Shown: positions 16,985 to 33,247 of the stretch, piece after piece
Layout of the letters: each line of letters opens with the position of its first letter
Position numbering within the stretch: the first letter of the stretch is position 1
Source of the DNA: a virus
Lineage: Duplodnaviria > Caudoviricetes
Direction: 5' to 3' (one strand)
Virus record (IMG/VR): IMGVR_UViG_3300037195_001092
Span: 1 to 38,552 of that record
Length of the DNA stretch: 38,552 bases
Made by a program: the position numbers and the translations under genes
The notes under the pieces: model-generated
The model's input: only the letters and a program-made list of their open reading frames with translations
What the model was told of the DNA's origin: nothing
Databases searched by the model: none

Positions 16985-17329
16985 TCAATCCTTGTAAAAT
17001 AAGTCCACGTTTTCTATTTTGCGGTATCCCAACCGTTCCATTAGAGGATAGTAGGGACTCTCCTTCCTGCATGGGATCACATAACTTTCAATCCCTCGGT
17101 CCTGTGCCATTGCATTCATGCAGATTCCAGCCAGCAACGAATCTCTGGAGTTGCATTCTTCATTGAGCCAAAACTGAAGACAGACGTTGTTGAATGAAAA
17201 TGCACCAACAATCTGGTTGTCTTTCAAAACGGCATGAGTCGGGTTACTAACCCCGTCATCTGCCTTTTTCATGGCATCAATCACCTGACTCAGCTTATTT
17301 TCTTCCCGTATAGGCTGAATATCGATCAT
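16985..17329 (-). CDS. Hypothetical protein, GNAT-like fold suspected
   Basis: PTH.V.KD.QIVGA.S and SPYY..MERLGY (a GNAT-type C-terminal ..LGF/Y); ATGA-coupled to the upstream gene. Confidence 0.55.
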   Translation of the reverse strand: MIDIQPIREENKLSQVIDAMKKADDGVSNPTHAVLKDNQIVGAFSFNNVCLQFWLNEECNSRDSLLAGICMNAMAQDRGIESYVIPCRKESPYYPLMERLGYRKIENVDLFYKD

Positions 17330-19659
17330 AAGTAAGATCCTGCTCCTGCTTTGGTCTTTCTATATTTTTTAGATTTCATGACAGGGTCCATCAGTCCTAA
17401 ACGCTGGTATTTCTTAACCCGTGCAGAAAGCTTGGCATAATCTGCCTGCAAGCTGTCATACGCAGACTTCGCAGAGGTATAAATCCCGACAAAGCCCTTG
17501 TCTTCTTCATCATCATCCTTGCCGAATAACTTCTCATAGGCCGACTTGGCTTCACCTTCTTCTTTCTCAAAAATTTCTTTTGCTGTTAAGAACTTACCAT
17601 GAGGTTCGGTGTAACCTGTCTCTGAAGTAATCACACCTGTTTTGGTTTCATGCTCTCCTGTCAGTGTCTCAACATCTTTTTCATATTCTGTTTCTGCACT
17701 GCCGACTATCCCTTCATCTGGGTTTCCTACAATTTTCTGATAAGCCTTTAGTAAAGCGGATGCCGCTTCTCCAGCACCCGTATCCAACTCTAATACTTTA
17801 GCTTGGTAATCGGTCCATGCTGTACCTTTTTGGGTAGGATCATCTTTAACTCCAACCACTTTTTGATATGCTTCCAACAAAGGATTTGAAGCTGTATCAT
17901 ATCCTGTTTCCAGAGCAGACGTTGTTCCTTCATAAGACGTTAATGCAGAGCCTTTAATAAACTCATCTTCAGGAGTATCAGGATCATCTTCACGTCCTAC
18001 GATTTTGTAATAATCGTCCAAGGCCGTTTTAAACTCACCGCCCATCGATGTCTGCAATGAAGTAAATGCTTTTCCGTAGATTCCCGATTCCTTCCCTGTC
18101 TCTGTCTCGACATAACCTCCTTCTCCATAGATGCTTTTAAAGACATCCGAATAAGAAGTATCCACTCCTCCTATTTTTTCCAGATAATCAGTATATTCTG
18201 GATTAAGGTACATTCCGTCTTTTACGTCTTCATCACCTGTCACTCTTCCTCCACCACGGCCTCCTCCTCGAATTGCGGAACGTGAAGGTTTGGAACCCTC
18301 AAAAGTATCCGTTGTCAGCTTGTTCCCACTGGGTCCGTAATACTCTCCTGTTAGATATCCGATGTCTTCTTCAATCTGCTTGACTCCTGTTGTGTCGTAC
18401 ATTTCGTTTAACTGATGAGACAGATAATGGGGAGCATAATTACTTGTAATATCTTCCCATTCGGTTTTTCTATTCCACCAATCTCCAGTAGTAACTTTTT
18501 TATAAATCCTATGATTTTCTGCCTTACGATCTTGCATACTGTATCCAAGAGCTTCCATTGCCCTAGATCCTAATCTTTGATAATCCTTGTACTTGTCATC
18601 AACCTCACCTTTCAGCCATTTGGATAAAACATCGTATCCCCACATAGCTTCACCATAAACTCCATACGGATCGGTAACATTACGCATATCCGTATCTGCC
18701 GCTTTGATGGTTCCTAATTGATTTCTAAGCACGGAACCTAATTGTTTAAGACTGCCTGCATCTCCTGACATACCCATGACATCAGCCCCGTAAGGACTAT
18801 AACGATCATGGATTCCACCCAATCTTTTTCCTGTTTCAGTTGTATCTCTAAAAGTGTCCTGAACGTCATGGATCTTGCCTCGCTTAAACTCATTCACATC
18901 TGTGGTTAAAGGATCATCAGCAACCCCGTAATGAGTCTCAAAAGCCGTTTTATCTTTCCCTTTTGCTGTTTCAGTAATGGCTTCGACTTTTCCGAGATAA
19001 TCCTGCTCCGCAAGTGCGAACTTCCCTGTTTTCAAATCATCTTCGGTTCCTGGAATCAGGTCCTCTCCGATTCCATAACTCTCTACAATGCCTTTTTGTG
19101 TGTCTCCCAATGTTGTCCCTGCGGTATCCAAAGTTCCCGTGTAAGTCGTAAAGGCTTCTCCGAATTTGCCTGTGGACGTTTCATCATCAGGATCACCAAA
19201 ATATTCCAGATCCAGGCCTTTCATGCCTGTGCTATAAGTGGTTTCTGCGGTATCTAATGCAGTGGTATAGGTGCTAAAAGCCTCACCATATTTGCCAGTA
19301 CCCTCTTCCGTAGATCCATACTCTGTCTTCAATTCACTTAAACCTGTCCCATAGGCGGTGTCCGCACCTGTCAGCTTTCCCTTATAGGCCGTTAATGCCT
19401 CACCAAGCTTTCCTCCTTCACCTGTCTCTCCGAAATATTCTGTATCCAATGCGGTTTCCGCATCGGTCTTGTACTGGACTGCCTCGCCTCCGTACTTATC
19501 CATGAACTCTTCAGCCGCCTCTGCCTCACCAAACTCTTTTGTGTAGGTTTTATAAGCAGAAGTGTAGCCAGCATAAGCCTGTCGGTAATCTCCTGTGACA
19601 CGGCTCAAACGCTTTCTCATGCGTTTGGCTTTGGATGCTAAGAAATCGTAGGTAGACAT
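17326..19659 (-). CDS. 777-aa acidic Tyr/Thr/Gly-rich repeat protein, function unknown
   Basis: Long ORF coupled to TerL (TGATG); two internal ~40-aa repeat arrays. Confidence 0.6.
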   Translation of the reverse strand: MSTYDFLASKAKRMRKRLSRVTGDYRQAYAGYTSAYKTYTKEFGEAEAAEEFMDKYGGEAVQYKTDAETALDTEYFGETGEGGKLGEALTAYKGKLTGADTAYGTGLSELKTEYGSTEEGTGKYGEAFSTYTTALDTAETTYSTGMKGLDLEYFGDPDDETSTGKFGEAFTTYTGTLDTAGTTLGDTQKGIVESYGIGEDLIPGTEDDLKTGKFALAEQDYLGKVEAITETAKGKDKTAFETHYGVADDPLTTDVNEFKRGKIHDVQDTFRDTTETGKRLGGIHDRYSPYGADVMGMSGDAGSLKQLGSVLRNQLGTIKAADTDMRNVTDPYGVYGEAMWGYDVLSKWLKGEVDDKYKDYQRLGSRAMEALGYSMQDRKAENHRIYKKVTTGDWWNRKTEWEDITSNYAPHYLSHQLNEMYDTTGVKQIEEDIGYLTGEYYGPSGNKLTTDTFEGSKPSRSAIRGGGRGGGRVTGDEDVKDGMYLNPEYTDYLEKIGGVDTSYSDVFKSIYGEGGYVETETGKESGIYGKAFTSLQTSMGGEFKTALDDYYKIVGREDDPDTPEDEFIKGSALTSYEGTTSALETGYDTASNPLLEAYQKVVGVKDDPTQKGTAWTDYQAKVLELDTGAGEAASALLKAYQKIVGNPDEGIVGSAETEYEKDVETLTGEHETKTGVITSETGYTEPHGKFLTAKEIFEKEEGEAKSAYEKLFGKDDDEEDKGFVGIYTSAKSAYDSLQADYAKLSARVKKYQRLGLMDPVMKSKKYRKTKAGAGSYL

Positions 19660-22917: not shown

Positions 22918-23930
22918 GGAACCAACCGCCTTTTCTTGTCACGATGCTTTTTGAACCTTTTCCAAACATTGGAAATCCGCTTCTGAATTCCTGCACCAGA
23001 CCAAGGAGAAGCACCCTCCATGTGCCTTTCGTAATAACCACGATCTGACCCTCTTCCTAATTCTGGAGGATTAACAGCATCAATCGCCGTTCCTACTACC
23101 CCCAAACTGCTCTTCCCTACTGTTTTGGCTACTTTTTTGCCCGTTTCTATTTTTCGCTTACGGGAAATTACTTTGTTTGCACTCGAAGCAGGATAATTCG
23201 GGACTTCCCCCTCTTTCATGTCCCATGCAATCCTGTCCATCCTTTGCTCGTATTTGTCCCCGTACTCTTTCTCTAAATACGGTGCCTTTTCTTTTTTACC
23301 ACCCCTCCAAACAATAGGTTCTCTGTATTCTTTGAATTGCTGATTTTTATAATACAGATTTTCCCGTTGCCACTGATTTTTAATAAATAAATCCGTTCTC
23401 TGAGGGTTTTTCATGTGTGCAACTTCATGAAGTGCAACATGCCTTCCTAAATCTTTCTCCGATTTGTATGCTCCCTTCGGTAAAGGCTTGTGTGTACTGT
23501 GCTTGTCACCCATCTCCCAACTACGCTTGCCTTCAGGCTTGTAATTGAAACTCCCGTATCTCGCTAAAGGCTTCCTTCCTCCTCTCCTTGTGTCTGTCTC
23601 CTCTCCCTCCTGAAAACCCCAATAACGCTTGACGTTCTCAGGCGATATCGAAACCGTCTGCTTTCTGTAATCAGTTCGCCCTAAAACCTTGCCTCCTGAT
23701 TGTTCGTAATCTCCAGGCTGAAAATGAAACGTCCAAGGCTTTGTGTGATCCCTGAATTCCCTTTCCGTAATGTCCATCTTCCTAAATGATTCAAAAGCAT
23801 GCTTCCTGTCCCAAAGATCCTCGTCTAAAACATCTGGACTGCTTGCCGCACCCCTCAACGAACTCTGCATCCGTATCAATTTCTTCTTCTTCAACTTTAT
23901 CGCTTGTGCCGTCTCCATGAAAATCATCAT
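22914..23930 (-). CDS. Hypothetical protein with HEXXH zincin motif
   Basis: HVALHEVAHM; LGRTDY...V.IS upstream; first gene of the late arm. Confidence 0.6.
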   Translation of the reverse strand: MMIFMETAQAIKLKKKKLIRMQSSLRGAASSPDVLDEDLWDRKHAFESFRKMDITEREFRDHTKPWTFHFQPGDYEQSGGKVLGRTDYRKQTVSISPENVKRYWGFQEGEETDTRRGGRKPLARYGSFNYKPEGKRSWEMGDKHSTHKPLPKGAYKSEKDLGRHVALHEVAHMKNPQRTDLFIKNQWQRENLYYKNQQFKEYREPIVWRGGKKEKAPYLEKEYGDKYEQRMDRIAWDMKEGEVPNYPASSANKVISRKRKIETGKKVAKTVGKSSLGVVGTAIDAVNPPELGRGSDRGYYERHMEGASPWSGAGIQKRISNVWKRFKKHRDKKRRLVP

Positions 23931-24007
23931 AACCCAAAAAAATCCATCCCCTGCTCCTAATCTTCATTTAGGCTATAGGTCTTAACATCGACAGAACACA
24001 CCAAGTA

Positions 24008-24063
24008 GAGAGGTGGGAGGAATCATATGCGTACTGCTCGCACTTTGTGCCCCCCACCCCCTC
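24008..24063. promoter_or_regulatory. G/C-tract element upstream of the late arm (candidate pac or late control site)
   Basis: GAGAGGTGGGAGG ... CCCCCCACCCCCTC imperfect inverted repeat enclosing TGCG..CGCA. Confidence 0.35.
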
Positions 24064-24094
24064 ATCGCCAGCACAGCTCCACCATTAGCTAATG

Positions 24095-24245
24095 ATCATC
24101 ATTAGTTATATATACATATTGATCCCCATATCTTATTGAGCAGATAGGCTTATGGTTGCTCTAATGAGTACAGCTACTTAACCAAGGGTATGATCATAGA
24201 ATGAACATAAGATATGGGAATGAAGATTATAGACTAATGGTGATT
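24095..24245 (+). ncRNA. Long imperfect stem-loop, candidate ncRNA
   Basis: ATCATCATTAGT/ACTAATGGTGAT (one G-U) and a perfect 12-bp CCCATATCTTAT/ATAAGATATGGG, with inner hairpins. Confidence 0.45.
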
Positions 24246-24588
24246 AATGCATGTTCTAGTAACACTTATTGCCTAAATTCAAATACCTACATTTAGCATA
24301 GGAATTAATATCATCAGAACATCAGTAATTGCTTTATCTGTTCATAGAATTCTTAATCCACTCTGTGTGAGATGATTCATCAGAGTTTAAGTCATGCACA
24401 CTCTTAAAGATCCATCTATTCATCATCGAAGTTCTTAGCCGTTGAATAATCATTTTATCCAATGGAGATAGGATATTTCTAAGCTATCTAAATGCTCTAT
24501 CTTTCATGCCATTCTCATCTTTTCTCAGGTTTGCATGCTGTCCCACGCTGACAGGCCACTGAAGAGTTGTAAGGTCTTTCCTTTCAAA

Positions 24589-24835
24589 CAATCTCTAGCT
24601 GATTGGGGAATCCCAGAACCTGACCCTGCCATGTTGAGGCTTTGCACATCGGCAACACTGGCACAGCGTTACAGTCATCATCCCCCATCCTCGACAATGC
24701 CCTGATCGGGTTTTTTCTGGTCATTGTTTCATCGTTGGTTTTTGTTTCATTTCAACCATAAAAAATCGAGGAGGGGGGCGTTCTTGGTTGGTGCAGGGTC
24801 AGAACCTGCGATTCCAAAAACCAATCAGGAGATTG
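24589..24835 (+). ncRNA. ~245-nt structured 5' leader that occludes the RBS of the first early gene
   Basis: Nested pairings CAATCTC/GAGATTG, CTGATTGG/CCAATCAG, GGAATC/GATTCC, CTGACCCTGC/GCAGGGTCAG and CCCCCATCCTCGA/TCGAGGAGGGGGG. Confidence 0.7.
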
Positions 24836-24838
24836 ATT

Positions 24839-25135
24839 ATGAAACGAAAAACCAACAACTCTAAAATCAGTAGCCCCATGTCAACGTGGTACAGGGCAAA
24901 GCCTGGAAAATCTGAAAATGGGAATGATAGGCCTCAGATATCTGGAAATATCGAGCTATCTCCACAAATGGTCAAAATGATCATTGCAAACGGAGAACTT
25001 CATGAAGATGAATATCTGGAGTTAAGAGTCAGTGCATGGCCTCAACCTCATGAGAATAATCAACCGACACACAGAGGAAGATTACAATTCTCTGATGAAC
25101 AGATTAAAGAATTCCAAAAAACTAAATCCGCTTAA
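24839..25135 (+). CDS. First early protein (98 aa), possible nucleic-acid-binding beta fold
   Basis: AGGAG RBS at 24827; ATG at 24839; N.RPQISG.I...VSAW.....QP..RG pattern reminiscent of DUF736-like proteins. Confidence 0.7.
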   Translation: MKRKTNNSKISSPMSTWYRAKPGKSENGNDRPQISGNIELSPQMVKMIIANGELHEDEYLELRVSAWPQPHENNQPTHRGRLQFSDEQIKEFQKTKSA

Positions 25136-25141
25136 CAACTT

Positions 25142-25172
25142 AAAGCCTTGCAGAAATGTAGGGCTTTTTTTT
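25142..25172 (+). terminator. Rho-independent terminator
   Basis: AAAGCCTTGCA-GAAA-TGTAGGGCTTT followed by a T-run, 6 nt after the stop at 25135. Confidence 0.88.
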
Positions 25173-25201
25173 ATGCAAACGCTTATACCCTTAAAGGAAA
25201 T

Positions 25202-25585
25202 ATGGAAGAAATTAAAACGAATCACCTAAATAGCACTAACGTAGGTAGAACGAGTGCAAGAGTTCGCAAAAATGATGCCACGTTCGATAATGCTGAAATG
25301 GTTGTTTATGAAGAATATCTACAGTCATTCTGGCCTGACTATAATCCTGTAACTGCAAAATACAGTCATGAGCAAGAACAGCTTAGATCTCGTAACTTTA
25401 GAATAATTGATAGCCCAGTTCAAAAAGCTCAACCAATTGTTTTATCTGATTGCGAGAGATTAACTAACTATCAACTTAGATCCCGATGGGATGAGATGAT
25501 GGTTGTTGCACGACAATTGGTTACTACTAATGAATTGCAGGAATTGATTAATGATCAAGAAGAAAGAGAGCGAGAGCTTATCTAA
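25202..25585 (+). CDS. Hypothetical early protein
   Basis: AAGGA RBS then ATG at 25202 (MEEIKT); 127 aa. Confidence 0.7.
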   Translation: MEEIKTNHLNSTNVGRTSARVRKNDATFDNAEMVVYEEYLQSFWPDYNPVTAKYSHEQEQLRSRNFRIIDSPVQKAQPIVLSDCERLTNYQLRSRWDEMMVVARQLVTTNELQELINDQEERERELI

Positions 25586-25733
25586 TCTACTCAGTAATCC
25601 AATTGTAATGGGTTTGGGAGCCATAATGATGGTTCCCGATTTAATCCCAGTGCTAATAGGAGCATTTATGGGATTTATCATTTCTAAATCTAAAAATAAA
25701 GGAAGTCATGCCCCAGAAAACGAAAAAGTATAG
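25551..25733 (+). CDS. Small membrane protein
   Basis: Hydrophobic IVMGLGAIMMVPDLIPVLIGAFMGFII stretch; start uncertain. Confidence 0.55.
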   Translation: MIKKKESESLSNLLSNPIVMGLGAIMMVPDLIPVLIGAFMGFIISKSKNKGSHAPENEKV

Positions 25734-25947
25734 AACGAACATCAAACAAGATCTGAATGATGCAAGTGAAACCATCAATAATTCCGATTTTGTTGGTGAA
25801 GCAATTAATACGGTTGTGGATCATCAAGAAACAATTGTAATCACTTTATTCAGAATGCTGACTACATTAGTAGTGGGCTTTATTACAGTCATCACGGCTG
25901 TACTCAATATTCCTTTTAAAATCTTCACAAAGAAAGAGGAGTTTTGA
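25708..25947 (+). CDS. Small membrane protein
   Basis: AAGGAAG RBS; C-terminal hydrophobic segment. Confidence 0.65.
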   Translation: MPQKTKKYRTNIKQDLNDASETINNSDFVGEAINTVVDHQETIVITLFRMLTTLVVGFITVITAVLNIPFKIFTKKEEF

Positions 25948-26177
25948 TGAAAGATCTACAGTCATCATATAATCAAAAAGACCAACTATATAATCATACG
26001 CTTGGTCGATTAGCTGGTGTTAAGGCTGGCACTCCCAGACAACTTAAATTCAATCATGTAAACTTTGTTAACTTAAAAGCCAAACGTGATTGGATTAAAA
26101 TGCAGGAAAAAACCCTCCAGAGTCTTCACAAGGTACTCAAACGTCTGAGTACCAAAATCCATGTTCAAGCCGCTTAA
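25944..26177 (+). CDS. Basic hypothetical protein
   Basis: GAGGAG RBS; overlaps the upstream stop. Confidence 0.65.
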   Translation: MMKDLQSSYNQKDQLYNHTLGRLAGVKAGTPRQLKFNHVNFVNLKAKRDWIKMQEKTLQSLHKVLKRLSTKIHVQAA

Positions 26178-26185
26178 ATGCAAAC

Positions 26186-26203
26186 GGGAGTCGTATGGCT
26201 CCC
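26186..26203 (+). repeat. Hairpin GGGAGTC-GTAT-GGCTCCC (copy 1)
   Basis: Stem identical to 26434-26451. Confidence 0.75.
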
Positions 26204-26233
26204 ATTCCTTAAACCCATTCATAAATTAATACA

Positions 26234-26428
26234 ATGAAATTAAACGATTTATCCAATGTTCGATTAGATGATAGAGCCTACAACTTCTTTGCCTTCCACG
26301 ATCATATTCAAGAGATCTGGTTAAATGACCAAAAAGTCTTTACAGAAGTTCCACGTAAAGCTGATGGATCACTTGATGATGATAATCTCACCTATTTCAC
26401 ACGAAGTGAATTTCCTGATTTCTCATAA
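26234..26428 (+). CDS. Hypothetical early protein
   Basis: 64-aa ORF bracketed by the twin hairpins. Confidence 0.65.
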   Translation: MKLNDLSNVRLDDRAYNFFAFHDHIQEIWLNDQKVFTEVPRKADGSLDDDNLTYFTRSEFPDFS

Positions 26429-26433
26429 CACCA

Positions 26434-26597
26434 GGGAGTCGAAAGGCTCCCACATGTCTAATTACAGTCATCAACCAGGATACGCTAACACTCTTAACGC
26501 TCACTCGTGCGCAGGACCGTACAGTCATCACTATGCCAATGTAAGATCCCCTTCGGGGTCCCTTTCACGGGTGAAGGGCCCCTCGGGGGGCGCATGT
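26434..26597 (+). ncRNA. Tetraloop-rich intergenic structured RNA candidate
   Basis: A GAAA hairpin, two TACAGTCATCA copies, then three back-to-back GC hairpins (TTCG, CGGG and TCGG loops). Confidence 0.55.
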
Positions 26598-26618
26598 TAA
26601 TCTCAAACAATAATAATT

Positions 26619-26855
26619 ATGGCAGTAGTATTTTATATTAAAGATTTCCTACGTATTGCAGATGTGGATCTGCTGTATGAGGGACTAAAAATGATTGAAG
26701 ATAGAATATGGGAAGAAGCTGATGTCCAATCAGGTCTTGATGCAGAAAAACTTCAGAGAGTCGAAGATCTCAGATGTTCGATTCTTCAATGTCTTGAACA
26801 CATCTCAAAGGAGAAAAGTAATGAAGTACAGTTGGACACAAAAACCAATCCTTAG
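26619..26855 (+). CDS. Hypothetical protein
   Basis: 78-aa ORF in the early operon. Confidence 0.6.
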   Translation: MAVVFYIKDFLRIADVDLLYEGLKMIEDRIWEEADVQSGLDAEKLQRVEDLRCSILQCLEHISKEKSNEVQLDTKTNP

Positions 26856-27054: not shown

Positions 27055-27455
27055 TGATCCTGAATCGACTTTATAATATTATGGAACAAACTAATGTAGT
27101 TCAGATGCCTGAACAAAAAGAATTTGAACCTTGGGAACGTAATCCTGATTTGAATGATGTAGAAGTACAATTAGCAAATCTGGAAGAACGTCTTAAACGA
27201 CAAATGAGCATAACCAAAAATCAAGCTGATACTATTGAAAGATACAGAAAAGATTTGAATGCCCATATTAATACATGGAATTCTGTCTTTACAATGATGC
27301 AAATATCTAATCCTGAAATAGTCACATCTGATAATTTAGATGATGCTGTATCTGATTGCATTTCTAACAACAGTGATGTTGTCAGTCAAGATAATCTTGA
27401 GGAAAAAGTAAATGATGCAATCAGTGATTTAAATTTCTCTGTAACTGTAGAATAA
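27054..27455 (+). CDS. Coiled-coil hypothetical protein
   Basis: TAATG coupling; C-terminal duplicated V..DNL...V.D.IS motif. Confidence 0.65.
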   Translation: MILNRLYNIMEQTNVVQMPEQKEFEPWERNPDLNDVEVQLANLEERLKRQMSITKNQADTIERYRKDLNAHINTWNSVFTMMQISNPEIVTSDNLDDAVSDCISNNSDVVSQDNLEEKVNDAISDLNFSVTVE

Positions 27456-27457
27456 GG

Positions 27458-28240
27458 ATGAATATGGTAGTTGATGAACAAGTGAAAACCCTTGATGCAC
27501 TCAAGGACCGTTATGTACCACAAGCTAGAGCCTCATACTCCCCTGTCAGTCATTACGACTACATGTATGAGCTTCACAATCATCTTCAGACACAAGGTTG
27601 TGAGATCCTAAATGAGAGATACACACTCATTGCAGATAAACTCCATAAAGATGATAAGGAAAAAACCCCAGGAATGGTGATGTTCGCAAAGATCGGTATT
27701 GCTTACCGAGATCACCAGAACGAACGCTTCACTTATAACTTTGGAGCGATCAATAGCCATAACACCAAACACGCCATCAAGTTATTTGCTGGTGCGGTAC
27801 TTGGACTTTGTTCCAATGGGATGATTTGGGGTGCAGAATACACCACGAATCAACGCCATCAGGGCGGTAACATCATTCAATCGGTACGTAGCATGATTGA
27901 AAGTGGATACAGCCATGTACTACTGCAACACAAGAAAATGGACGATGCGGTAGGAATTATGGAGAAAATAGGGCTATCTAGGGATAGAGCCGCCGAACTG
28001 GTAATGGATGCAATGACCGCAGGAGCAGTTGCTCCGTCAGCCATTGAGCCTGTTTGGAATCATTGGGAACAAAGAACTCCAGAAGGAGAGAAGTTTCCAG
28101 AGCGGAACATGTGGTCTTTGTATAATTCATTCACTGAGAAGTTCAAAGATGAACGAATCAATAATGTCTACAACAAAAATAGGAAGTTGAATAACTTCAT
28201 TACCAACACTCCTGAATTCCAAGAGGAATATTATCAATGA
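27458..28240 (+). CDS. DUF932/DUF945-like protein
   Basis: YSPVSH, NSHN...I....G.....CSNGM and W.LYN.FTE motifs. Confidence 0.8.
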   Translation: MNMVVDEQVKTLDALKDRYVPQARASYSPVSHYDYMYELHNHLQTQGCEILNERYTLIADKLHKDDKEKTPGMVMFAKIGIAYRDHQNERFTYNFGAINSHNTKHAIKLFAGAVLGLCSNGMIWGAEYTTNQRHQGGNIIQSVRSMIESGYSHVLLQHKKMDDAVGIMEKIGLSRDRAAELVMDAMTAGAVAPSAIEPVWNHWEQRTPEGEKFPERNMWSLYNSFTEKFKDERINNVYNKNRKLNNFITNTPEFQEEYYQ

Positions 28241-28536
28241 AACTGTTGACTAAGGAGTTGGAGCGTAAGCTCCCTCCTTTGTACCACACAGAAGCCATTC
28301 CAACTAAGGAAATCAAATTCATAACCAAATACTTCACACCTGATTCTGACTTTACTTGGTATGTTGCTGAATACGATCCAACAACCAAAGATATGTATGG
28401 ATACACAACTAACAGCAGATACCAGGAATGGGGCTATTTCAGCCTTATTGAACTGATGTCAGTCAGAGGACCGTTAGGACTGAAAGTGGAACGTGATCTC
28501 TACTTCACACCATGTACTGTCGACAAAATCTCATAA
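28237..28536 (+). CDS. DUF2958 family protein
   Basis: KYFTP...TWY..EYD...YG...EWGYFSL.EL..VRGPLGL.VERDLYF motif. Confidence 0.88.
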   Translation: MKLLTKELERKLPPLYHTEAIPTKEIKFITKYFTPDSDFTWYVAEYDPTTKDMYGYTTNSRYQEWGYFSLIELMSVRGPLGLKVERDLYFTPCTVDKIS

Positions 28537-28655
28537 CAGCCCCATGCGAAATATGCGGAGAAGACGTAGAAGTTTGTCCAAACGAAGACGATCATCTCTA
28601 CCCTCCGCTTTATGACCTAACCTTTTGCGAAGATTGCAATGCATCGAAAGTATGA
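28512..28655 (+). CDS. Small Zn-finger protein (47 aa, CEICG...CEDC), not in the ORF track
   Basis: Translated by hand: MYCRQNLITAPCEICGEDVEVCPNEDDHLYPPLYDLTFCEDCNASKV. Fills the gap between two genes. Confidence 0.55.
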   Translation: MYCRQNLITAPCEICGEDVEVCPNEDDHLYPPLYDLTFCEDCNASKV

Positions 28656-28950
28656 ATCATTAAAGAAATATGTTGAACACATGAACTTCTGGCATCAGCT
28701 TCTAGATGATCATGAAACTGATAAATACGAATATCCCGTTAAATCTCAAACAACTGCTGATGCGATTTTTAAAGAACTAGAAGCTGATTTATCCCCTGAA
28801 AATCTTCACTGTGATGGTGAGATTTCCAGAGAAGAAGCATCCAAAAAGCTCAAAAAGCTTTTAGCTATTGGAAAAAGCCTCCAATGGGCAGGATTTGGGA
28901 TCAATGTTGACTCCGAATTAGGCTCATACATGGCCTATTCAGATAGGTAA
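28639..28950 (+). CDS. Phage hypothetical protein with LSPENLHCDGE motif
   Basis: Motif recalled from other phage hypothetical proteins; function unknown. Confidence 0.7.
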   Translation: MHRKYESLKKYVEHMNFWHQLLDDHETDKYEYPVKSQTTADAIFKELEADLSPENLHCDGEISREEASKKLKKLLAIGKSLQWAGFGINVDSELGSYMAYSDR

Positions 28951-28970
28951 CCATAAAAAATTGGGAATAA

Positions 28971-29255
28971 ATGCCTTACGAAACCAAAAACAAAGATGTC
29001 AATTTTAAGAAGTATATCGACCTAGTTGAAGATCATTTAGCAGGACGGAAGAAAAACGGAGTCCTTAAATCAGAAGCCGATTACCTAGTGGGAGCGATGG
29101 TCATATTCACTCTTTTAGAAGAATGGCCTCCGTCACACTGGGTCTTCGATATCATGAGTGGTGATTCAATTTTAGACCGAAAAGATGCTTTTCCGAAACA
29201 AACACCATTTAAAGAAGGCTATGATTCTGACAAAAGCACAGCGAAGAGCAGTTAA
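28971..29255 (+). CDS. Hypothetical protein
   Basis: 94-aa ORF with GGGA RBS. Confidence 0.65.
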   Translation: MPYETKNKDVNFKKYIDLVEDHLAGRKKNGVLKSEADYLVGAMVIFTLLEEWPPSHWVFDIMSGDSILDRKDAFPKQTPFKEGYDSDKSTAKSS

Positions 29256-29403
29256 GGATCTCTTTGAGAGGAGTCCTGATGGTGCAAAAACCTATCGGGA
29301 GTTTCGCAAAAGAGCCCATTACGGGATACCAGCAGACCATATCATGCTCCGTTGGTGTCATATGTGGGTTGGTATTGAAAAAGACGGATACACCCATACA
29401 TGA
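29221..29403 (+). CDS. Small phage protein (Y..FR.R...W..MW.GIE.DGY.H motif)
   Basis: Start MILTKAQ with GAAGG RBS; ATGA-coupled to the next gene. Confidence 0.72.
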   Translation: MILTKAQRRAVKDLFERSPDGAKTYREFRKRAHYGIPADHIMLRWCHMWVGIEKDGYTHT

Positions 29404-29627
29404 TTGAGGTAATGCTGATCACAGGCATTTCCACAGTGGTCGGCATTATCTTCTTAATGCTGAAAGCTGGCTTAAAGAAGTGCCTGGAACATGATCTCCT
29501 GATTGATCTAGCCGTGACAGCCCTTCTGATCTGGCTATTCAGTGGTTCTACTACGGGTATCGTCACAGGAGCCTTCACAGGCGGTTTATTGTCCCTTGTT
29601 TTATTTCTGATCAAAAAGATTATATGA
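29400..29627 (+). CDS. Small multi-pass membrane protein
   Basis: 75 aa with three hydrophobic segments. Confidence 0.75.
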   Translation: MIEVMLITGISTVVGIIFLMLKAGLKKCLEHDLLIDLAVTALLIWLFSGSTTGIVTGAFTGGLLSLVLFLIKKII

Positions 29628-29660
29628 ATTCCATAAACGCTATGTAAACGCTATTCCGTC

Positions 29661-29855
29661 ATGCTTGAACTTGCTTTATCAGCAAATATGATCGCTGATT
29701 ATATAAAAAACACAAATCCCAAACCTACCAAAAGGTTTAATTTAGAACATAAAATTACTGAAGCTTTAAGAATTCATGAAATGTCTGAATATGACTCAAT
29801 AGTTTTGCGTGATAAAATCAGAACACAATACAACCGAATTAAGGCAAAGAATTAA
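29661..29855 (+). CDS. Hypothetical protein
   Basis: 64-aa ORF, last of the small early block. Confidence 0.5.
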   Translation: MLELALSANMIADYIKNTNPKPTKRFNLEHKITEALRIHEMSEYDSIVLRDKIRTQYNRIKAKN

Positions 29856-29955
29856 GAGCATCTTTCACAGGCAAAGATTCACCATGCAGATAATGATCGA
29901 GAATCATTATTCTCCCTTTTTGCTAAATAACTGATATTCATCAGTATTAAAAATG

Positions 29956-29984
29956 TTGACTACAGTAGGAATTATGCCTACCAT
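29956..29984 (+). promoter_or_regulatory. Sigma70-type promoter with overlapping palindromic operator
   Basis: TTGACT-N17-TACCAT; a GTAGG-N7-CCTAC inverted repeat at 29965-29981 overlaps the spacer and -10. Confidence 0.75.
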
Positions 29985-30044
29985 AGAATTCATTAAGCTA
30001 TGTTAATTTACTTAACATTAATGAACCTGTCAACAATATTTCAA

Positions 30045-30245
30045 ATGAACCTCAAGCAAGCCTATGAATTTTACCAAGGTGTGCGGCTGAGTGAAGTCGC
30101 AAGAGATCTGGATGTATCTGAGGCGTTTGTCAGTCAGGTACTATCAGGAAAAAGAAACTCTGCTCAAGTGACCACAGAGTTACGGCAGAGAATTGAGAAT
30201 CGAATCAGCGAACTCAAATCCAATTTATGTTCTCAGTCCAGTTAA
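30045..30245 (+). CDS. Cro-like HTH transcriptional regulator
   Basis: LSEVARDLDVSEAFVSQVLSGKRNS HTH; alternative in-frame ATGs at 30000 and 30021. Confidence 0.85.
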   Translation: MNLKQAYEFYQGVRLSEVARDLDVSEAFVSQVLSGKRNSAQVTTELRQRIENRISELKSNLCSQSS

Positions 30246-32631: not shown

Positions 32632-33247
32632 ACTTAAAGCGATTTTGAAGATGGAATTGAGCGATAGACAACGCCGAATTCTGATTGCTGAAGACGTTCT
32701 AGGAATCTACGGAGTTGAGCGTATATCTGCGGTTACGGGGATTTCGATGAACCATGTTTATACTGAATTGAAGGTCATGAAAGAGTCCCAGGTACGTAGT
32801 ACGTACTTGGTACTAACTGAGCATGATATATTAACCAAAGATGTAGATGTTGATAGTAATGAAACAATAACCAACATGAATGCCGATGGAGATAGAATAC
32901 CTCCATCTAAAGATAATACCAATGTAGATGTATATAGTAATGATTATATAGATATATATACCCAATATCCGAAGAAGACCGATAAGAGACGAGGAGAGAA
33001 AGTCTTCAAGAGTCTGATCAAGAACGGATACTCAAAATCATTCCTCCTTCAGTGTGTTCAGAACTATCTCGACAGTGGTGGAAACAACCGAGTCCGAGAT
33101 AGAGATCCCAACTACATCAAATCCTTAGCCGTCTTTCTGGGTCCAGATCAGCATTTTCTGGAATATTCAGAATCGTCTGAGCCCTCACAGCCTCCTCCAA
33201 AGCCTTTCATTGATGAGGACAACTCCATTTCCAATCTTTTGGTATGA
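32612..33247 (+). CDS. Replication initiator (lambda O-like organisation)
   Basis: N-terminal HTH-like part, low-complexity linker over AT-rich repeats, C-terminal YPKK..K....F...YIK....FL domain; upstream of the DnaC-like gene. Confidence 0.72.
   Translation: MTEVKSKLKAILKMELSDRQRRILIAEDVLGIYGVERISAVTGISMNHVYTELKVMKESQVRSTYLVLTEHDILTKDVDVDSNETITNMNADGDRIPPSKDNTNVDVYSNDYIDIYTQYPKKTDKRRGEKVFKSLIKNGYSKSFLLQCVQNYLDSGGNNRVRDRDPNYIKSLAVFLGPDQHFLEYSESSEPSQPPPKPFIDEDNSISNLLV
32788..32960. other. Putative replication origin inside the initiator gene
   Basis: Palindrome GTACGTA-G-TACGTAC; 22-bp direct repeat ATGTAGATGTnnATAGTAATGA at 32841 and 32922; hairpin GATGGAG/CTCCATC; TA-rich tract. Confidence 0.6.

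Follow-up and report, generated by a model that had tools for sequence, protein, structure and literature searches.

Short sequences that recur on one strand of a phage early region are a recurring puzzle, and one description of the T1-like phage TLS lists the function of its polar repeats as an open question (PMC11447400). The same question is raised by IMG/VR record IMGVR_UViG_3300037195_001092, whose 38,552 nucleotides (hereafter the window, meaning this whole stretch of DNA) come from a marine podovirus with a terminase of the P22/LUZ24 class. Its late genes run leftward from 23930 and its early genes rightward from 24842, and the 11-mer TACAGTCATCA is repeated on the + strand of the early arm. 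A preliminary description had proposed that this word is a dedicated cis signal of the earliest-expressed DNA whose placement is not driven by protein coding, and had named as options nut/boxA-like antitermination sites, protein-binding sites, Chi- or KOPS-like polar signals, and multiple targets of one antisense RNA. We find that the word is a real, selected and apparently undescribed cis signal; the proposal of a dedicated, not coding-driven signal is supported by conservation in relatives, fixed synonymous positions, turnover of sites and a concerted swap of the word in another clade. As to function, we offer a tentative answer, namely a stoperator-like docking site for a phage protein, and weigh it against four others. 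A literature search for repeated early motifs in podoviruses found nothing.

Copies of the word in the window and in its relatives

The invariant unit is the 9-mer TACAGTCAT, which occurs seven times on the + strand over 24670-26528, not at all on the − strand and nowhere else in the window; five of the seven copies extend to TACAGTCATCA. These 11-mers, at 24670, 25884, 25957, 26463 and 26520, were located where the preliminary description had placed them, with no further exact copy in the record, as were the variants TACAGTCATTC (25320) and TACAGTCATGA (25361), also on +, and copies inside open reading frames (ORFs) do fall in all three reading frames. In a count on both strands against Markov backgrounds of orders 1-4, the + strand was expected to carry 0.11-0.21 copies of the 9-mer and 0.011-0.031 of the 11-mer. 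As a look-elsewhere control, 60 simulated 4th-order genomes were searched for their best 9-mer per 1.9 kb, which reached three copies (56/60) or four (4/60), compared with the seven observed. Matches with at most two mismatches were at chance level overall (13 seen and 12.9 expected) and only two 9-mers had a single mismatch, both outside the motif zone; the word is thus all-or-none. The earlier grouping of the copies into a singlet and three pairs stands as to the cluster spacings (650, 564 and 579 bp), but the pattern is not conserved, since only the last pair recurs in relatives.

Four of the seven copies lie inside genes. Copy 1 (24670..24680) belongs to the structured leader that precedes gene 1 and directly adjoins, on the 5' side, a conserved three-way junction, while copy 2, consisting of the 9-mer core (25320..25328), and copy 3 (25361..25371, in a frame read as Y-S-H) are inside gene 2 (25202..25585), copy 4 (25884..25894, in an I-T-V-I frame) is inside gene 4 (25708..25947), and copy 5 (25957..25967) is at the start of gene 5 (25944..26177); none of these three + strand genes has been assigned a function. 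Copy 6 (26463..26473) lies 3' of a hairpin termed H1, and copy 7 (26513..26530) carries a conserved 5' extension, AGGACCG, with an ATG 2-7 nt downstream in six of six aligned sequences. Between copies 1 and 2, directly after gene 1, the strong terminator reported at 25142 was found again as an intrinsic-terminator-like hairpin (25142..25175, +), with an equivalent hairpin and U-tract in L080, L083 and L094. The copies stand at free positions inside genes and in no fixed relation to this terminator, which weakens the option of nut/boxA-like antitermination.

Across the classes of site, no -10/-35-like second element and no ATG at a fixed offset is recurrent, and helical phasing of the copies was not seen, making a promoter or a looped complex less likely; TACAGT was considered as a -10 hexamer and rejected for want of a second element or a fixed start distance. 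Coding of a Y-S-H peptide in ORF 26325-26600 was likewise rejected, because in L070 and L222 the pair spacing, 56 and 50 nt, does not preserve the frame. Inspection of the word found no self-complementary stem. The word may also resemble lambda Int arm sites, box C, 16S helix 34 and the anticodon arm of tRNA-Tyr, but over 7-8 bases such likenesses are within chance. A separate word, TGTCAGTCA, is found four times on + at 27380-30136 and shares CAGTCA with the motif; its number is within the simulated range and it is apparently coding.

Among 23 related loci (149,085 nt, some overlapping or from the same contig), we identified 17 exact 9-mers, ten of which (the last pair in L070, L222, L234, L266 and L287) are invariant by construction, being part of the search pattern. 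All 17 share the early strand with the seven in the window, and every copy falls in the interval bounded by the first late gene and the homologue of the ORF at 26619; the 24 copies include 19 full 11-mers, and their flanks are free on both sides. Evidence independent of the pattern search is provided by L080 (two copies) and L083 (one copy), both of which were found by terminase, by G004 (26,641 nt), found also by its DUF932 gene, with three copies, all within its first 450 nt, and by the extra copies in L266 and L287. With regard to the scope of these searches, the viral pattern matches comprised 76 loci, of which L070 was the sole close relative and most were unrelated repeats; a metagenome pattern scan covering 42 of 64 parts yielded 114 loci with five relatives, one of them (L247) identical to the window; and four of five matches to a GGACCG-extended pattern were not relatives.

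Individual sites are both kept and turned over. The copy at 25361 is kept in L080 and L083 and that at 25884 in L070 and L266; the leader copy is kept in L080 and absent in L083, the copy at 25320 has no counterpart in either of these, that at 25957 has none in L070 or L266, and L266 and L287 carry an extra copy at another place in gene 5. Under the in-gene sites that are kept, synonymous positions are fixed: codons under the motif in gene 4 are identical at four of four positions between the window and L266, versus 21 of 48 elsewhere, and those in gene 2 at three of three among three sequences, versus 9 of 27 elsewhere, for a joint probability of roughly 1e-3 by our own arithmetic. The two comparisons suggested by the preliminary description, of synonymous sites and of related phages for the same or a substituted motif, both support its proposal of a cis signal, the latter with same-strand copies in the same zone and with another word in L094.

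A different word in the matching block of L094

L094 was found by its terminase (68% identical to that of the window), not by the motif, and has the same kind of early layout, with a gene-1-like protein, a terminator, a gene with an EY..WP anchor, a hydrophobic gene and a homologue of gene 4. In a comparison among 192 segments, local E-values were 0.023 for gene 1, 0.51 for gene 2 and 2.2e-6 for gene 4, and homology to gene 3 was not detected; given the weak values for genes 1 and 2, only the homology of gene 4 is firm. TACAGTCAT is absent from this contig, but ATCACTATCA occurs five times within 1.26 kb, always on the early strand and never on the opposite one, versus at most three copies in 200 simulations. 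Two of the five are in the leader, one is between the gene 1 stop and the terminator, and genes 2 and 3 have one each. The copy in gene 2 lies 35 nt past the WP codon of the EY..WP anchor, compared with 30, 30 and 33 nt in the window, L080 and L083, respectively, and is read as S-L-S in another frame than the Y-S-H of the window clade. An equivalent place in gene 2, occupied in a differing frame by a differing word, indicates that selection acts on the word as nucleic acid and that its copies were exchanged in concert, and we take the L094 word as the strongest sign of one reader with a clade-specific preference. The 11-mer of the TACAGTCAT clade and ATCACTATCA both end in ATCA.

These two clades thus amount to a natural swap experiment, in which the same gene block carries two exact words and one site was kept while the encoded amino acids changed; candidate readers could therefore be tested without a host, by presenting both words to the proteins of the window clade and of L094. 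Among the early regions of two sets of terminase loci (19 and 18, from scans covering 28 and 37 of 64 parts), the matching block was present in L094 only, and in the other 36 the region differs or is missing. A more distant terminase relative, L337, has a polar repeat of its own that resembles GGTAATGACCT, with 7-8 copies on one strand of its early region, located 4210-6686 nt upstream of the terminase match.

A proposed docking site, its candidate reader and competing explanations

We tentatively interpret TACAGTCAT(CA) as a stoperator-like docking site for a clade-specific protein controlling the first transcription unit, an interpretation to which we assign close to, though short of, an even chance. 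DNA to the right of about 24,020 would enter the cell first and would be transcribed at once by host RNA polymerase; a phage protein made in this first burst, perhaps the DUF736-like product of gene 1 (24842-25135), would then bind each site, whether on DNA, in the transcription bubble or on nascent RNA. Once bound, it would affect polymerases as they pass, most likely forming a roadblock of the stoperator type by which the pre-early genes are turned off again, and several sites at free positions would give an additive effect. Additive docking sites are favored because there are no promoter elements or phasing, because there is no guide on the transcribed strand, because the one helix-turn-helix (HTH) gene considered is an unlikely reader, and by analogy with stoperators; among the options listed in the preliminary description, that of a protein-binding site fits best. 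If a reader were confirmed, uncultured marine podoviruses would be shown to have an early-gene control, or a signal for DNA entry, that belongs to a new class.

Stoperators, as described for the cluster A mycobacteriophages L5 and TipsytheTRex, are also short, asymmetric, multi-copy sites that are oriented with transcription and vary in sequence by clade (PMC9283540), and in the phages studied here 24 of 24 copies of the word, as well as five of five in L094, are on the early strand. By contrast, stoperators are 13-mers distributed genome-wide over promoters and short intergenic gaps, at more than 20 sites, and are read by the two-domain immunity repressor of a temperate phage (PMC9283540), whereas the window has seven sites in 1.9 kb. 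The 21-nt repeats of TLS offer a second parallel, since they are polar, belong to a lytic phage and have themselves been likened to stoperators; they consist of two parts and lie between genes, about 76 nt ahead of start codons, unlike the compact word described here, which has no fixed start distance (PMC11447400). The ops site read by RfaH is a polar element of about 12 nt on the non-template strand that is likewise read during elongation, but it forms a hairpin and recruits a NusG paralogue (PMC5995543), while our word lacks self-complementarity, recurs inside genes and is accompanied by no NusG-like gene that could be recognized in the window; a NusG-family protein could also be supplied by the host.

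Gene 1 (97 aa, 24842..25135, +) is the leading candidate for the reader on the basis of its position and of weak family leads. It is the first early gene and its own leader carries a copy of the motif, and comparisons lead to a cluster at 0.90 in which 23% of members carry DUF736, and to Enc34 single-stranded-DNA-binding families at 0.86-0.87; no Pfam or PDB-sequence match was obtained. Between the two clades with differing words, gene 1 identity is 17-20%. Its sequence pattern might be read as PC4-like. A model for such a protein is Drc of the N4-like phage LUZ7, a small early single-strand-binding protein that acts on transcription; Drc recruits a phage RNA polymerase (PMC7145618), of which none was recognized here, and for gene 1 no fold match was found. 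A bolder version, in which a small DUF736/Enc34-like protein would read an exact 9-11-base word on one strand of leaders and genes alike, and word and reader would change together between clades as a swappable address code for first-entering DNA, we regard as unlikely. Proteins of this fold class are thought to bind single strands without sequence preference, and the address code, if true, would mean a reader of a new class, one that recognizes a specific sequence on a single strand and controls either transcription at entry or the processing of ends. Another gene considered, the HTH gene at 30000, has a conserved palindrome in its own promoter and is an unlikely reader. Facing sigma70-like promoter matches occur at 29945-30040 before that gene; the palindrome, which is the likely HTH operator, lies over the rightward spacer and is near-perfect in L159, L160, L166 and L167.

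Several observations weigh against a docking site read by gene 1. The word differs from stoperators in being confined to seven copies in 1.9 kb, four of them inside genes, with an invariant core, and neither an integrase nor an immunity repressor was recognized in PHROGs and Pfam scans, in which many ORFs stayed unannotated. All genes of the zone point the same way, so that polarity with respect to transcription is indistinguishable from polarity with respect to the genome end; the swap is known from a single contig, L094; and the last pairs in relatives, as noted above, were fixed by the search. As for gene 1 itself, its predicted models reached pLDDT 70 and 62 with a best Z of 3.2, and the better model, which was the one used in the fold search, had no Foldseek match at E<=0.001 in PDB or BFVD. 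Its homology across the two clades is weak (hhalign probability 12%, P 0.0025), L083 has gene 1 without the leader copy, and although the word is unchanged in L080 and L083, identity of their gene 1 falls to 36-47%.

A single guide would also give rise to all-or-none matching and a concerted swap, and the copies might then be targets of one small RNA with the seed UGAUGACUGUA, encoded either by the host or on the minus strand, in the leader or in the last pair, although we consider this distinctly unlikely. In the systems that the preliminary description had in mind, P1 C4 and P4 CI, one RNA acts on several identical short targets, swaps are clade-specific, and the guide is on the same transcript strand as its targets. 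No co-transcribed complementary guide was found here: allowing G-U pairs, the complement of the 11-mer does not occur on + and that of the 9-mer occurs once, at position 56, with none in L094, and neither Rfam matches nor an excess of wobble-type target variants were seen. This lack of a guide on the transcribed strand weakens the P1 C4/P4 CI option, and a minus-strand guide would require the leader copy, which L083 lacks although it keeps a target. Target accessibility is near average (mean percentile 0.62).

The leader of gene 1 (24597..24830, +) bears on the same question. At its core is a three-way junction (24682-24778) in which 9 of 26 pairs have changed on both sides across three sequences, more than in any of 500 shuffles, albeit in a small sample of three related sequences from which the structure was itself derived; L094 has a similarly shaped element. 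In favor of a minus-strand RNA, the leader folds better on minus in three of three window-clade sequences (z -5.2, -3.6 and -5.6, versus -2.5, -2.8 and -3.5 on +), the complement of the word is largely unpaired in the window, and there is a weak minus-strand promoter match that ends at 24836. Against it, folding in L094 is better for the + strand of the leader, where the first complement is paired, and the junction has an invariant G-U pair that favors +. Rfam gave no family at gathering score, with sub-threshold chance matches only in the window and none in five related loci.

The location of the motif zone near a presumptive genome end raises the possibility, which we hold to be somewhat unlikely, that the word is a DNA-end signal, either a set of Chi-like sites (minus-strand TGATGACTGTA, met by a nuclease-helicase that enters from the left) or polar sites at which a translocase or the packaging machinery is loaded, which would protect, circularize or define the end of first-entering DNA. 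The word is exact, polar, position-free and clustered, as such signals are, and a difference in hosts would account for the word swap. In addition, read and contig depth steps up at about 24,014-24,033 in X1 and X3, and in one sample is 2.0-2.3x that of the flanks up to about 25.5-25.8 kb (X1, 139.5 versus 48-63; X2, 27.3 versus 12-15), so the doubled depth overlaps the motif zone. The doubled segment (24014-25835) may be a long terminal redundancy or a segment common to two strains; the latter is suggested by X3, where it ends at 24557 and depth falls to 7.0 by 24680, and by a second strain that branches off at 23914. Adjoining the depth step, upstream of the first late gene, is a C-rich element, TTTGTGCCCCCCACCCCC (24044..24061, +), for which a pattern search of 31 terminase loci gave a match in seven, clades without the motif among them and six with the match at the equivalent place, and which is kept in L080, L082, L083, L094, L095 and L141. 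This element is likely a packaging or terminus signal separate from the motif; L095 and L141 share it, and no such motif cluster was seen in them, which weighs against an end signal. We infer a genome end near the depth step or 24044, in which case the motif zone would be first-entering DNA. A second long nested hairpin is present at 23966-24278 in the gap between the arms (z -3.2 on + and -2.5 on -).

Comparisons with known end signals are divided. Among the relatives by terminase are P22-like phages as well as LUZ24-like ones, whose termini are short direct repeats (PMC8540360), and lambdoid phages that have a recombinase and no RecBCD inhibitor concentrate Chi, an exact, polar, position-free word, towards cos, near the packaging site (PMC3784561). 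Chi itself is an 8-mer over-represented in its host, although the enrichment in Escherichia coli is only about 2.3-fold (PMC3784561), and our longer word has no such host among 602 sampled proteobacterial genomes, as the 11-mer has six copies or fewer in each of 401 and 201 genomes; the comparison is of low power, and the host may be outside the sample. The 401 include the unpublished genomes G044 and G301, on which no claim depends by itself. In the top five genomes, the 9-mer compared with its control gave 19/14, 28/33, 41/46, 26/13 and 16/10. Chi and KOPS words are not known to exceed 8 nt, while the words of the two clades are exact over 9-11 and 10 nt.

The neighborhood of the motif zone includes genes for DUF932 and DUF2958, families that also occur in plasmid leading regions, and these, along with the position-free, multi-copy arrangement confined to the earliest region, would suit a decoy, in which copies on first-entering DNA or on the first transcript titrate a host regulator or defense protein. 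We consider a decoy very unlikely. On double-stranded DNA, a decoy needs no strand polarity; no known host site of this sequence was found; and among the 20 titles listed of 32 papers that contain the word string in full text, none is on a phage or a regulator. The main text of PMC11541004 does not contain 'DUF'.

Finally, the copies might be crossover points for the shuffling of small gene cassettes with no regulatory role, which strikes us as most improbable. Gene content does vary among relatives between copy 7 and the closing hairpins, three G+C-rich hairpins that form a conserved run (26548..26596, +) and end the motif zone before ORF 26619, and between the two copies of hairpin H1 (26186-26203 and 26434-26451, +), which surround an ORF (26234-26428) that is missing in L070, L222, L234, L266 and L287. 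However, the copies in the conserved genes 2, 4 and 5 are not cassette borders, and insertion is better accounted for by the H1 duplicates. At the variable slot 26531-26547, L070 and L222 have differing genes between copy 7 and the closing hairpins. Some contig ends coincide with motif copies, and the strong hairpins there explain the gaps equally well.

Setting and neighboring features

Completeness of the window is recorded as 98%, and its head and tail genes are of podovirus type in PHROGs and Pfam scans; other genes encode a RecE-like exonuclease, a replication initiator, a DnaC-like loader, RusA and SSB. Its capsid protein is 43-45% identical to those of HTVC010P-like pelagiphages, and its terminase shares 40-53% identity with most of the enzymes listed from pelagiphages and from LUZ24-like, phiEco32-like and P22-like phages, group names that we take from the names of the phages. 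The runs that hold the window best are marine metagenomes; none of the 13 listed is an RNA run, and they are uninformative on expression. A blastn search with 24500-26700 matched no named phage. Searches for a host gave no relative in the genome contig collection by DUF932 alignment, only four distant matches (28-35%) by portal, and matches at only about 30% by SSB and DnaC.

Replication-origin iterons were rejected as an identity for the motif, which lies 6 kb away from separate 22-nt repeats in the initiator gene; there, at 32841-32943, two 22-nt direct repeats and a palindrome mark a likely origin. Within the motif zone, gene 3 (25551..25733, +) encodes a small hydrophobic protein, and a 28-nt inverted match (82% complementary) links the non-coding gap at 24171-24198 with gene 5 at 25989-26016. 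For a 777-aa ORF at 17326-19659, between terminase and portal, neither PHROGs nor Pfam gave a match. A second polar repeat, TAAACGCTAT / TAAACGATAT, occurs at 29634-29654 in the window and in L160, L161, L162, L166 and L167, often in tandem and shortly before the ATG of a small gene; its copy in the window overlaps a minus-strand promoter match of 11/12.

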